Notes under the pieces: generated by a model | Database searches by the model: none | Seen by the model: the letters and a program-made list of their open reading frames with translations, nothing else | Told to the model about the DNA's origin: nothing | Translations under genes and position numbers: made by a program | Shown here: in pieces, positions 11,594-32,028 of the stretch | How positions within the stretch are numbered: position 1 is the stretch's first letter | How the letters are laid out: each line of letters opens with the position of its first letter | Origin: an uncultured delta proteobacterium | Lineage (GTDB): Bacteria > Desulfobacterota > WTBG01 > CAIYCZ01 | DNA length: 38,416 bases | Direction: 5' to 3' | Assembly: GCA_963803975.1 (NCBI GenBank) | Contig: CAWDOY010000056.1 | Location: forward strand, 1-38,416

Positions 11594-11622
11594 TTGACAA
11601 AAGATTTTCTAGCAGTTATAAT
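11594..11622 (+). promoter_or_regulatory. Consensus sigma70 promoter of the rrf2-met/cys operon
   Basis: Perfect TTGACA (11594-11599), 17 nt, TATAAT (11617-11622). Confidence 0.88.
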
Positions 11623-11676
11623 CACCATAAAGTTAGTAGATGTATTAGAGTTACATATAAGATGAGGTATGTTACA

Positions 11677-12118
11677 TTGAAATTATCAACGAAAGGGACG
11701 ATACGGAGTACGATTAATGCTGGATATTGCCCTGCACTGCGCGGAAGGGCCGGTACCTCTTAGAGCTATTTCTAAACGACAGGATATCACCGAGAAGTAT
11801 TTATGGCACCTGATAAATCCGCTTAAATCCGCTGGCCTTATTGAATCAACCCGCGGTGCACACGGCGGCTATGTATTAGCTAAACCGCTTTCAGATATAT
11901 CCATAAAAGAGATTGTACGTGCTTTAGAAGGGCCTTTGACCCTGGTAAAATGTGTTGAAAAGCCGGGCTCCTGCTCAAAAGCCAAGTCCTGTGTTGCCCG
12001 TGATCTATGGGTGGAAGTAGCTGAAAAGATTTCACAGACCCTGGAAGCAGTGACGCTGAAAGATATTGTAGAGAGCCATAAAACCAAAACTGATACAGCT
12101 GTTAATTACAATATTTAA
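11677..12118 (+). CDS. Rrf2 family regulator (IscR/CymR-like, three Cys); extra base near 11696
   Basis: TTG start gives MKLSTKG(RYGVRL)ML after repair; STRGAHGGYVLA; CVEKPGSCSKAKSC. Confidence 0.9.
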
Positions 12119-12143
12119 GGGACCACAATAAGAAAGTAATTAT

Positions 12144-12248
12144 ATGTTCACATATAAAAACATGACCGGCAATAATAACACCATGATGTGCTCTATGTGC
12201 ATGTGTATGTGTACCTTCGGGGGCAGATGGGTTTTTTTATGTAAATAA
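12144..12248 (+). CDS. Met/Cys-rich attenuator leader peptide, 34 aa
   Basis: MFTYKNMTGNNNTMMCSMCMCMCTFGGRWVFLCK*; 9 of 10 consecutive codons (12183-12212) are Met or Cys; AGAAAG 7 nt upstream of ATG. Confidence 0.85.
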   Translation: MFTYKNMTGNNNTMMCSMCMCMCTFGGRWVFLCK

Positions 12249-12278
12249 TTACAACATAGAGAAAAAATACCCACTGCC
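12222..12278 (+). promoter_or_regulatory. Antiterminator hairpin of the attenuator
   Basis: GGCAGaTGGGTTTTTTT (12222-12238) pairs with AAAAAAtACCCACTGCC (12262-12278), sequestering the 5' arm of the terminator. Confidence 0.8.
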
Positions 12279-12306
12279 GGACAATACACGGTCAGTGGGT
12301 TTTTTT
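12269..12306 (+). terminator. Intrinsic terminator (attenuator)
   Basis: ACCCACTG-CCG (9-nt loop) CGG-T-CAGTGGGT then T-run to 12306, just upstream of the yezD RBS. Confidence 0.88.
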
Positions 12307-12319
12307 ATGGAGGAAACGA

Positions 12320-12508
12320 ATGAGCACGTATCAGTCAAACAAAGACATTGCCAACTATAATATCATACGGGAAATACTCGACTCAGTGAAAAGGATAAAG
12401 TACGGGTCCATTAACATTAAGGTGCATGACGCAAAGGTCGTCCAGGTAGAGGTGACAGAAAAGTCCAGATATGACGACTGGTTTGTTGAGAAAGGCAGCG
12501 GCATCTGA
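12320..12508 (+). CDS. YezD/DUF2292 family small protein
   Basis: IKYGSINIKVHDAKVVQVEVTEKSR; GGAGG RBS; family typically precedes sulfur-assimilation genes. Confidence 0.85.
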   Translation: MSTYQSNKDIANYNIIREILDSVKRIKYGSINIKVHDAKVVQVEVTEKSRYDDWFVEKGSGI

Positions 12509-12574
12509 ATTGAACAGGGCCGTAACAGGTAAACAATTCCCATGATTAAACTTTACTAATATAAGGAGATAACA

Positions 12575-13892
<1,318 letters not shown>

Positions 13893-13905: not shown

Positions 13906-14868
13906 ATGGCTCATATATATAGTGATAACTCACAATCAATCGGCAACACGCCGCTTATCCGTTTGAATCATATACCGAAGGGAACAAAGGCCGCAGCTGT
14001 CCTCGGCAAGGTCGAAGGCCGCAACCCTGCCTATTCGGTGAAATGCCGGATCGGGGCGGCAATGATCTGGGATGCCGAGAAGCGGGGCTTTCTCAAGCCG
14101 GGGGTGGAGATCATTGAACCCACCAGCGGCAACACCGGTATCGCCCTGGCATTTGTGGCTGCGGCCCGCGGCTACAAGCTCACGCTGACCATGCCGGAGA
14201 CCATGAGCATTGAGCGCCGCCGCGTGCTGGCTGCCTTCGGCGCCAACCTTTTGCTCACCCCGGGTGCTGAAGGCATGCCCGGCGCCATCAGCCGCGCTGA
14301 GGAAATTGCCGCATCCGATCCAAAGAAATACTTTCTGCCCCAGCAGTTTAAGAATCCGGCCAATCCGGCCATACACGAGAAAACCACCGGGCCGGAAATC
14401 TGGCAAGATACGGACGGCGCCATTGATGTGCTGGTCTCAGGCGTTGGTACCGGAGGAACTATTACGGGCATTTCCCGCTTTATCAAAAACACTAAGGGTA
14501 AAAAAATCCTGTCCGTTGCCGTGGAGCCGAAAGAAAGCCCGGTAATTACACAGAAACTTGCCGGCCAGGAAATCAAGCCGAGCCCGCACAAGATACAGGG
14601 AATCGGGGCCGGGTTTATTCCCGACACGCTGGACCTCTCGCTTGTGGACCGGGTTGAGCAGGTGGACAGTGACGAGGCAGTGGAATACGCGCGCCGGCTG
14701 GCAAAGGAGGAGGGCCTGCTGAGCGGCATTTCCTGCGGGGCGGCTCTTGCGGCAGCACTGCGCCTGGCCCGGCAGGATGAGTTCTCAGGTAAAACAATTG
14801 TCGTTATTCTGCCCGATGCCGGTGAGCGGTATCTCTCGACAGTCTTGTTTGAGGGCATTGGTGCCTGA
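13906..14868 (+). CDS. cysK: Cysteine synthase A
   Basis: [50 protein letters not shown]. Confidence 0.97.
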
Positions 14869-14950: not shown

Positions 14951-16158
14951 GTGGCGGTACGTACATTTAAAGACACCGGACATACGCACAGCGTTCAAAG
15001 GACAGACAAGGGCGGCAGTATTGGAACAGTCAAAACTCAATATGTTACCTTTGCCCATCCTCCCGATGAACTCATTCTTGACAGCGGGGAGAAACTCGGC
15101 CCGATAACGCTGGCGTATGAAACCTACGGCACCCTGAATGGGGAAAAGTCGAACGCGATTCTGCTGCTGCATGCCCTTTCAGGTGATGCCCACGCTGCCG
15201 GCTTTCATAAAGGAGATGCCAGGCCGGGCTGGTGGGATGATATGGTCGGCCCCGGCAAAGCCTTTGACACGGAGAAGTATTTTATTATCTGCTCAAATGT
15301 GCTGGGCGGCTGTAAAGGCTCGACCGGGCCCGGTTCAATAAATCCAGAAAACGAATAAACCGTATGGCCTTGATTTTCCCATCATCACCATAAACGACAT
15401 GGTGAAAGCCCAGAAGCATCTCATAGAGCATCTGGGAATAGAAAAGCTTCTCTCGGTTGCCGGGGGATCGATGGGCGGGATGCAGGCGCTGGCATGGCTG
15501 ACAAAATACCCCCATAAGGTGCAGAGCGCCATGCTTATTGCCACTGCGGCAAATCATTCAGCGCAGCAGATTGCCTTTAACGAGGTGGGGCGGCAGGCGA
15601 TAATGGCAGACTCCCTTTGGCATAACGGCAACTATTACGGCGGGCGGCTGCCCTCAAAAGGTCTTGCCGTAGCACGGATGGTCGGCCACATCACGTATAT
15701 GAGCGACTCCTCAATGCTGGAGAAATTCGGCCGGCAGTTAAAGAATGAGAAGCAGCCGTTTAAATTTACCGCTGATTTTGAGGTTGAAGGATATCTCCAC
15801 AACCGCGGCGATAACTTTGTAAAGCGGTTTGATGCCAACTCATACCTCTATATAACCAAGGCCATGGATTATTTTGATGTTTCAGACGGGAAGCCGCTCT
15901 ATGAAGTATTAAGAGGGATTACAGGCACAGATTCTTGTCATCGCCTTCGGCTCAGACTGGCTGTACCCGGCGTACCAGTCACAGGAGATTGTGCGGGCCT
16001 GCAAGATGGCGGGCATTAACGCAACCTATTGTGAAATAGCCTCTACCTACGGCCACGATGCATTTCTGGTTGAAATTGAAGAAGAGTCACACCTGGTGAA
16101 ACATTTTCTGAAAAAAGTTTTCAACGGCTATGAAGCAACCAGTGAATATGAGATATGA
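14951..16158 (+). CDS. metX: Homoserine O-acyltransferase (MetX family), indels near 15355 and 15925
   Basis: [53 protein letters not shown] and YGHDAFL in the repaired frame. Confidence 0.93.
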
Positions 16159-16749
16159 TGCAATCCGGCCGGATCACCGAGTAATCAGCAGCCTGATTGC
16201 TGAGGGCTCATCAGTGCTTGACCTCGGGTGCGGCACCGGGGAGCTGCTGGCCCTGCTGGTGCAGGAGAAACAGGTCAGGGCCCAGGGCATCGAGATAGAT
16301 GAACAGGCCATATACGCGTGTGTTGCCCGGGGACTGAGCGTTTTTCATGGCGATATTGATACCGGCCTGGCAGACTACGCAGACCGGTCATTTGATTATG
16401 TGCTGTTAAACCAGAGCCTGCAGCAGGTAAAAAAAATTGAGACCGTGCTCAATGACGCGCTGCGGGTGGGCAGAAAAGTCATTATCGGCTTTCCCAACTT
16501 TGCGCATGTTACGGCACGTTTCCAGATATTTTTCAGGGGACGGACCCCGGTTACCCCGTCGCTTCCCTATGAATGGTATGATACGCCGAACCTGCACTTC
16601 CTGAGCATTTCCGATTTCACGCAATACTGCACCAAACACCGCATCGCCATAGAGCAGTCTATTTTTCTGGGAGAGAGAAATGATCACGGGTGCTGCCGAA
16701 CCTGTTTGCGCGGACGGGGATCTTCCTTGTTGCACAAAGACATCTTTGA
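16130..16749 (+). CDS. metW: Methionine biosynthesis protein MetW (indel near the C-terminus)
   Basis: VLDLGCGTG, SFDYVLLNQSLQQ, GFPNFAH, LPYEWYDTPNLHF; follows metX. Confidence 0.93.
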
Positions 16750-17119
16750 TGAGAACAGCGGGTTTAAAAATCACCTGCTGCTCGCTGATGGCTATCAATC
16801 CCTCGGTATAATCCCTTAAGCAGAGGTTATTACCTGCCGCCAGGCCGGACACCGTTCTGCCTTCACCGGTTTTGTACTGCGCCTGCCCCTCCCTCTCCCT
16901 TTATCTATATGCATTCAGCTTTCTATAGACATTATCTATTTTACATAATGAATGCACGTGGTTAAAACTTTTTATGAGATTGGAGAAGAAATCATGCAGA
17001 CCCTGAAGACCAGACACGTAACCGCAAAGCTTGCTGGCTGCTGTCGCGTATACACTGCTGGTCAGGGTATCAAGGGCATTCGCTGCAGCAGCGAATATTT
17101 AATGGAGACTTCTTGCTTC

Positions 17120-31642: not shown

Positions 31643-32028
31643 GTGTGCCAGGGAAGCTGGCATCAGCAAGCTGGGCAATCCAGCCTGAATAAAGGTTAAC
31701 CACCAGTTCAGTACGGAACTCCGCATGCAGGCCGGTAACGGGCTGCATGAAGCCGGAGGGAAGGAGGAAGTCAGCCACAACGCAAGTGAAGGTATTGAGC
31801 CCCGAAATACTCCATGTTGCACGAAGGCCAAGGGTTTCATATCTCTGAAGCCGGAAATGATAGGCGCGATAGGGTGAGCGCATCGAAACGTGCCGGGGTC
31901 TAAGTCCGTGGCGGGCGACCGAACTGTTGATGCCGGAACCTGGGAGAGCCAATCCGTTTCAAGAAGCCGCCGACAAGCCGACCAGAGGCAAGGGAGGGGT
32001 ACGCCGGATTGGCAGTCGGACTGACTTT
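31643..32028 (+). mobile_element. 5' fragment of a group II intron RNA (domain I to about II/III), no RT ORF, no domain V/VI
   Basis: Starts GTGTGC; GGTAACGG..GCATGAAGC, AGTGAAGGTATTGAGCCCCGAAA, CCGGGGTCTAAG, GGAACCTGGGAGAGCC and GGCAGTCGGA motifs typical of bacterial group II introns. Confidence 0.8.

Follow-up and report, generated by a model that had tools for sequence, protein, structure and literature searches.

A probable attenuator with mixed methionine and cysteine codons ahead of yezD-metY-cysK-metX-metW, and its relatives in metagenomes

Between an Rrf2-family regulator gene and the genes yezD-metY-cysK-metX-metW of an uncultured delta proteobacterium lies a short leader that is very probably a ribosome-mediated transcription attenuator reading the supply of both Met-tRNA and Cys-tRNA. 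It sits in a window of 38,416 nucleotides, which here means the whole stretch of DNA that was analysed. Several amino acids are known to have leader-peptide attenuators, and the control of methionine genes is usually ascribed to SAM riboswitches, T-boxes or protein regulators. If the reading is right, it adds methionine plus cysteine to the specificities of leader-peptide attenuation. It would also explain the control of sulfur genes where no riboswitch has been found, in uncultured anaerobes and soil bacteria.

The leader and its operon are on the forward strand of the window. The whole operon transcript likely starts at a sigma-70-type promoter at 11594..11622, judging from its 12/12 match to the consensus. 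The Rrf2-family gene follows at 11678..12118 (PF02082 and TIGR00738 over cut-off). Its called ORF is 11717-12118, and the profile match begins at profile position 12-14; an assembly frameshift seems to affect its 5’ end, and the start at 11678 is placed by a Shine-Dalgarno (SD) energy of -7.1. An rrf2 gene is upstream in 9 of the 52 leaders that have enough flank, among the matches listed.

After the promoter, at 11623-11650, there is a loose palindrome (ATCTA...TAGAT-like). Similar ones follow the promoter or rrf2 in L001, a locus with a homolog of the window leader, and in L003, L004, L007, L014-L016, L018 and L157-L159. These palindromes are likely Rrf2 operators, which would make them a second layer of control.

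Downstream of the leader, the SD sequence GGAGG of yezD (12309..12313, -9.3 kcal/mol) abuts the U-tract of the predicted terminator. The small YezD/DUF2292 protein is encoded at 12320..12508 (PF10055, E 4e-14, with a weak OscA-like match). Then come metY for O-acetylhomoserine sulfhydrylase (12575..13892, split by one indel near 13037), an intact cysK for cysteine synthase A (13906..14868, TIGR01139 over cut-off), metX for homoserine O-acetyltransferase (14951..16158, split by two indels) and metW (16130..16819, TIGR02081 over cut-off). No other copy of metY or metX was found in the genome. A first-pass annotation, made from the letters alone, had named these five genes, and profile matches confirm the names. 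At 12360-12559, contigs of a relative from two RNA runs lack yezD, and there the leader region almost abuts metY. The only Rfam match in the window lies elsewhere, at 31675-31908, and is a fragment of group II intron domains 1-4 (RF02005).

The leader ORF itself is unannotated. It begins 25 nt behind rrf2, has 34 codons (12144..12248) and translates to MFTYKNMTGNNNTMMCSMCMCMCTFGGRWVFLCK. Both its coordinates and its MMCSMCMCMC core are as first described. That core, at 12183..12212, consists of five Met, four Cys and one Ser codon. In the six reading frames of the whole genome (4.25 Mb), 42 stretches of 10 codons hold at least 6 Met/Cys, and this one, with 9 out of 10, is at the top. It is also the sole short ORF in a scan of the genome with at least 6 Met/Cys codons followed by a hairpin and a U-tract. 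A second candidate from this genome (C54) was dropped, since it runs in another frame within a long ORF. A crude scan of the same genome for His, Trp, Thr and Leu leaders yielded none that convinced.

A strong intrinsic terminator had been claimed at 12269-12306, and the predicted fold bears this out. The stem is formed by 12269-12279 and 12289-12300, followed by a U-tract at 12300-12306. Folded as 12262-12308, the hairpin reaches -21.3 kcal/mol (z -6.1), and 0 of 200 shuffles were as good. A simple terminator scan did not detect it, because the loop of 9 exceeds that scan’s limit of 8.

The competing antiterminator, in 12218-12284, is predicted at -22.1 kcal/mol (z -6.1, again 0 of 200 shuffles as good). 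Its 5’ arm, segment 2 (12222..12242), lies inside the leader ORF. Segment 3 (12254..12279) can pair with segment 2 by way of 12254-12278, or with segment 4 by way of 12269-12279. Both hairpins need 12269-12278, so they are mutually exclusive. This exclusivity had been proposed before and stands, but the pairing is longer than was claimed, with 12222-12242 matching 12254-12278. A further proposed pairing, 12191-12198 with 12254-12261, is indeed complementary; minimum-energy folds pair 12254-12262 with 12234-12242 instead.

The effect of a translating ribosome was modelled by blocking the RNA underneath it, with the end of the nascent transcript at 12290. With the ribosome at 12204 or an earlier codon, the antiterminator has a probability of 0.98; at 12207 this becomes 0.88-0.98, at the last Cys (12210) 0.48-0.88, and from 12219 on it is 0. 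Masking the footprint, as had been suggested, puts the modelled switch point at the last Cys codon. In the thermodynamic prediction, nascent RNA that carries no ribosome prefers the antiterminator, at 0.92-1.0 from 12278 to 12304. With the leader masked, the terminator wins at full-length equilibrium; the switch would therefore rely on the order of co-transcriptional folding.

The mechanism would then be as follows. Transcription from the promoter ahead of rrf2 would enter the leader. With both amino acids ample, a ribosome would clear the run, cover segment 2 and halt at the stop codon, after which segment 3 would pair with segment 4 and RNA polymerase would terminate at 12300-12306. Should either charged tRNA be scarce, the ribosome would stall in 12183-12212, segment 2 would capture segment 3, and yezD-metY-cysK-metX-metW would be transcribed. 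Failed initiation would also give read-through, because ribosome-free RNA is predicted to form the antiterminator. Translation, stalling, termination and the sensing of both amino acids are steps that we infer from sequence and folding.

Relatives were searched for in metagenomes with a pattern that fixed one Met-Cys pair (ATGTGY) and the terminator core, U-tract included. At least 118 stretches matched, giving 111 distinct elements, one of them identical to the window. Outside the fixed codons, the 111 elements among the matches listed have ATG counts of 273/38/27 by frame and TGY counts of 227/141/41. In 96 of these 111, also among the matches listed, a stop codon occurs 20-50 nt before the terminator core, versus 25 and 23 in the other frames. 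The same pattern had 5 matches in viral contigs, 0 of 5 with a leader.

Elements were called leader-positive if they had at least 5 Met/Cys in 10 codons and the right spacing. Among the matches listed, 101 had enough downstream DNA, and the next gene is sulfur-related for 64 of 71 leader-positive elements versus 8 of 30 others, where DUF3034, YeiH, porin, rhodanese and SrpI are taken by us to be sulfur-related partly on context. Those 8 consist mostly of weaker leaders. Seven leader-positive elements, again among the matches listed, are exceptions: one stands before a thr operon, two are the second leader of a tandem pair, and four are unassigned. Among the genes in first position downstream are metY, yezD, DUF3034, sulfite reductase, a protein of the sulfate-binding type, proteins with a PAPS-reductase domain (CysD is one), DUF2061, a porin and an SrpI encapsulin. 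Two downstream proteins cluster with Acidobacteriota records. The first-pass annotation had proposed looking for a conserved leader in relatives, and there is one, with frame-specific Met/Cys runs, fixed stop-to-terminator spacing, a covarying antiterminator and a sulfur-gene context.

Signs of translation were counted in 88 leader-type elements from the matches listed, a set partly chosen by Met/Cys content and uncorrected for kinship. The open frame upstream has a median of 26 codons, versus 8 and 5.5 in the other frames. An upstream in-frame ATG is found in 78 of 88, versus 12 and 1, and a good SD in 48 of 88, versus 3 and 0. The family has a start and SD bias; the window copy has a weak SD match (-1.5 kcal/mol), and its start codon is inside a small predicted hairpin (-4.4).

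The antiterminator is conserved as a structure. In 84 leader-type elements among the matches listed, the duplex of segments 2 and 3 has a mean energy of -18.5 kcal/mol, against -15.6 +/- 0.3 for swapped partners and -9.0 for 27 non-leader matches. An alignment was made of 57 of 79 dereplicated elements, with 22 divergent ones excluded by hand and relatedness left uncorrected. In it, the named antiterminator helix is 79.1% paired and shows 28 double changes, figures that 0 of 500 shuffles equalled in either respect; slid-helix controls are 28-47% paired. One pair between segments 2 and 3 switches from U-A (39) to C-G (12), with 7 U-G and 4 C-A mismatches (n=62). Covariation in the terminator is uninformative, because the search pattern fixed its core.

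The ribosome mask was also applied to the 88 elements, counting only partners inside the ORF. A mid-run stall lets the antiterminator form in 86, and a stall on the very last control codon keeps it in 37. With no ribosome it forms in 60. For 74 of the 88, the switch point lies between codon -3 and codon +1 relative to the last control codon.

Is methionine really sensed? Among the matches listed, Met occurs after the first Cys in 29 of 32 metY-first leaders, 22 of 25 with yezD or DUF3034 first, and 11 of 15 of the sulfate-assimilation type. The metY-first count argues that Met is not merely a start codon. The mean Met share, among the matches listed, is 0.62 in metY-first leaders (n=32), 0.48 before yezD or DUF3034 (n=25) and 0.37 before sulfate assimilation and similar genes (n=15). 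The difference between metY and sulfate assimilation has p 3e-5, and that between yezD/DUF3034 and sulfate assimilation p 0.07, both uncorrected for kinship. In several metY leaders, 5-6 Met accompany a single Cys. The window leader, with its 5 Met and 4 Cys, heads an operon for both products. The position of Met, and a Met share that tracks the next gene, indirectly support the sensing of Met besides Cys.

The best-surviving alternative, which we regard as unlikely, is an attenuator that reads Cys only. Its Met codons would be alternative starts, or AUGs kept for pairing with CAU repeats after the stop. A protector-type helix between the control codons and the 3’ end of the leader is indeed 75.5% paired, 41 of 88 elements have CATC-like motifs behind the stop, and the published sulfur leaders, in the available parts of their papers, contain Cys only. 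However, covariation as high as that of the helix occurs in 234 of 500 shuffles. The Met codons after the first Cys and the rising Met share before metY also speak against this alternative, as does a good SD at the upstream ATG in 48 of 78 elements versus 20 of 77 for the first ATG of the run.

Beyond the window copy, the matches may form a Desulfobacterota-type and Acidobacteriota attenuator family in which the Met:Cys ratio is tuned per operon, and in which ribosome-free RNA defaults to read-through. We put this forward tentatively, as having a little less than an even chance. The tuning is suggested by leaders that are Met-rich before metY and Cys-rich before sulfate assimilation. A read-through default would remove an obstacle to sensing Met with a ribosome, namely that a shortage of Met also slows initiation: stall and failed initiation would have the same output. 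Two questions would follow: how a ribosome sensor can cope when initiation itself uses Met, and whether the ratio of the codons weights the two inputs.

Control could also be mainly translational, with an extended hairpin hiding the ribosome-binding site of yezD, much as in the mycobacterial polycysteine leaders. The yezD SD sequence is directly behind the U-tract, pairing reaches as far as 12309 in an extended fold, and the available part of 10.1101/834739 demonstrates translational attenuation for Ms5788A. The U-tract of the homologs is no test of termination, because the search pattern required it. But in most metY-first homologs the gene starts some 40-80 nt past the hairpin, too distant to be occluded by it, and hairpins of the family have a median energy of -15.8 (among the matches listed). 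This makes the translational alternative very unlikely.

We hold it to be slightly more improbable still that the product is what matters, either as a peptide rich in Cys and Met that binds metal or is modified, with an ordinary terminator behind it, or as a UG-rich protein-binding RNA. Frame bias and SD conservation do point to selection for translation, and TGY is raised in frame +1 too (141 vs 41), although that excess is expected from ATG-T overlaps. The N-termini vary freely in length and sequence, and no NCBIfam family matched over cut-off for the 9 leaders queried. The conserved C-terminal codons are explained by the covarying RNA pairing. A UG-repeat signal fits poorly with the use of both TGT (123) and TGC (104) among the matches listed. 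Two leader peptides looked up in a protein collection were absent from it.

The attenuator, then, remains the preferred reading, and it has to live with an imperfect assembly. Single-base indels frameshift metY and metX, and rpoB and cysS are frameshifted as well (C16:26260-30325 and C14:169000-170455 of this genome, G000). The extra bases at 13037, 15346 and 15925 are missing from related contigs, which come from three RNA runs of one study; these runs share only 0.12-0.16 of sampled words and consist of contigs of relatives. Because rpoB and cysS are split too and the related contigs do without the extra bases, the splits in metY and metX are read as assembly errors, and no gene of this genome should be called a pseudogene because it is split.

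The same may apply to the leader stop codon. In 50 of 57 aligned homologs among the matches listed, the last codon is a Met 18 nt past a conserved Gly codon. The window leader has ATG-TAA 17 nt past that Gly codon, behind a run of seven T’s. If the assembly misses one base here, the TAA at 12242-12244 may be the true stop. The attenuator model holds with either stop. That the leader is a chance find, or a decayed relic before a pseudogenised operon, could be read into the frameshifted metY and metX and the leader end that looks one base out of register, but we give this practically no credence, given that essential rpoB and cysS are split in the same way, that related contigs lack the extra bases, and that the family evidence is independent of this genome.

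Homologs were also found without the leader pattern, by way of DUF2292 or MetY: in G033, G020 (two copies), G385, G013 and G014. DUF2292 is present in 3 of 42 genomes of the class. The leader upstream of DUF2292 in G033 reads MMMCRMCMLNFLGRWDFFI, and those of G020 read MKSPESRNRKLMMCCMCRRYGPGQWGLFI and MTTNKQGLQMRMCCFQNSG; a contig end cuts a third copy. Among the metY loci of the class that added new upstream sequence, those of G013 and G014 carry leaders whose terminator differs and whose segment 2 differs to match.

Among DUF2292 loci of the phylum besides those of the class, 1 of 16 has the leader (G385). None was present in the 520 nt upstream of the 30 top-scoring phylum metY loci, taken from 125 genomes with a match; of these 30, several are operon-internal and two have less than 300 nt upstream. 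The metY locus of G004, in the class, likewise has no leader upstream. Rfam gave no match at the phylum loci that were examined and found leaderless. A looser pattern, run over 401 phylum genomes, matched only in G000 and G385. The leader is therefore real but patchy, since most of the DUF2292 and metY loci of the phylum that were examined do without it. A scan of genome contigs by YezD only returned two loci that were set aside, one a duplicate of L001 and the other an Omnitrophota locus with no leader. At L176 (G203), a terminator-like hairpin with a U-tract lies 67-110 nt before metY, with no Met/Cys leader and no Rfam match; it is possibly another unannotated attenuator.

The matches also contain some less expected arrangements. 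In L096:2999-3117 (-) and L090, the terminator core is the same and the leaders mix codons for Ile, Met, Cys and Thr. At L096 a thrB-like GHMP kinase gene comes next, with aspartokinase-like and thrC-like ORFs behind it, and the leader there is possibly a multi-input attenuator for the aspartate family. L075:1122-1484 and L124 each have two Met/Cys leader-terminator units in tandem. At L109:2043-3125 (-), a VCMCMCMC leader directly precedes an SrpI-like type 2A encapsulin gene. Cys-rich leaders stand ahead of a DUF2292-like gene at L052 and L061, and L052 has large proteins with twin-arginine-like signal peptides downstream.

A DUF3034 protein recurs between yezD and metY (L007, L025, L033, L043, L072 and others). 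L160 (G385) and L060 have a leader, yezD, a porin-like gene and a PstS/PstC/PstA/PstB-like ABC set, the likeness to Pst being judged by eye. The sulfur-type control suggests that this set carries a sulfur compound and not phosphate. If the attenuator reading is right, the leader marks DUF2292, DUF3034, DUF2061 and the Pst-like ABC system as candidates for sulfur regulation.

Leaders that read cysteine supply have been described before, and the novelty here is the methionine component. In the attenuator and DUF2292 literature, covered without most subscription and Russian-language papers, no Met or Met plus Cys leader attenuator was found. At the gathering score, Rfam, its leader families and T-boxes included, has no match in the window leader or 14 homolog loci, and SAM-I has none in this genome among 150 of 397 candidates scored. 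Like SAM-I riboswitch control, the leader is predicted to cause premature termination before metY. In the part of PMC2965389 available, Table S8 annotates SAM in 6 of 11 metY rows and has unannotated terminators in the other 5, one of which precedes metY of Acidobacteria Ellin345.

The first-pass annotation placed Cys-rich leaders mainly in Actinobacteria. This is too narrow, as PMC8632094 (Brewer et al. 2021), to the extent available, proposes ribosome-mediated attenuation for the uORFC-8-2 motif before Rhodobacterales cysS, which combines a Cys-codon uORF and a predicted intrinsic terminator. Unlike the window leader, this motif as described in that part has two tandem Cys codons, no role for Met, and occurs only before cysS; the word "methionine" is missing from the available main text (PMC8632094).

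In mycobacteria, polycysteine sORFs let a ribosome read Cys supply ahead of sulfur genes, with experiment for Ms5788A (10.1101/834739, in its available part, which also summarises the classical attenuator mechanism). Those sORFs are leaderless and poly-Cys, act by translational control and have no conserved intrinsic terminator according to the same part of that paper, whereas the window leader is behind rrf2, has mixed Met and Cys codons and comes with a predicted terminator. The portion of PMC1262725 at hand reports Actinobacteria Cys leaders with no terminators, and no conserved RNA elements before methionine operons. That methionine status could act via a uORF has been put forward for fthC uORFC-39-1 in Streptococcus (Narunsky et al. 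2024, PMC11109978, available sections). There the proposed control is by initiation rate (fMet-tRNA), with no Met run described in those sections and a different gene and structure. PMC11550727, in the part available, has no relevant leader.

The closest relatives in design are the classical attenuators. As in trpL, hisL, pheL and leuL of E. coli, a short ORF holds a run of codons for the end product and a U-tract follows; segment 2 lies some 6-10 nt past the run, and the 2:3 and 3:4 hairpins are alternatives. Attenuators for two amino acids are known as well, in the thrL and ilv leaders. The window leader differs from the classical examples in that its control codons are Met and Cys, and the family has no covarying protector helix. 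In trp, a leader that is not translated leads to super-attenuation. Unlike trp, ribosome-free RNA is here predicted to antiterminate, both in the window copy and in 60 of 88 homologs. What this leader shares with the classical attenuators is an end-product codon run, a predicted terminator, a mutually exclusive antiterminator with compensatory changes, and the spacing expected for a stall.
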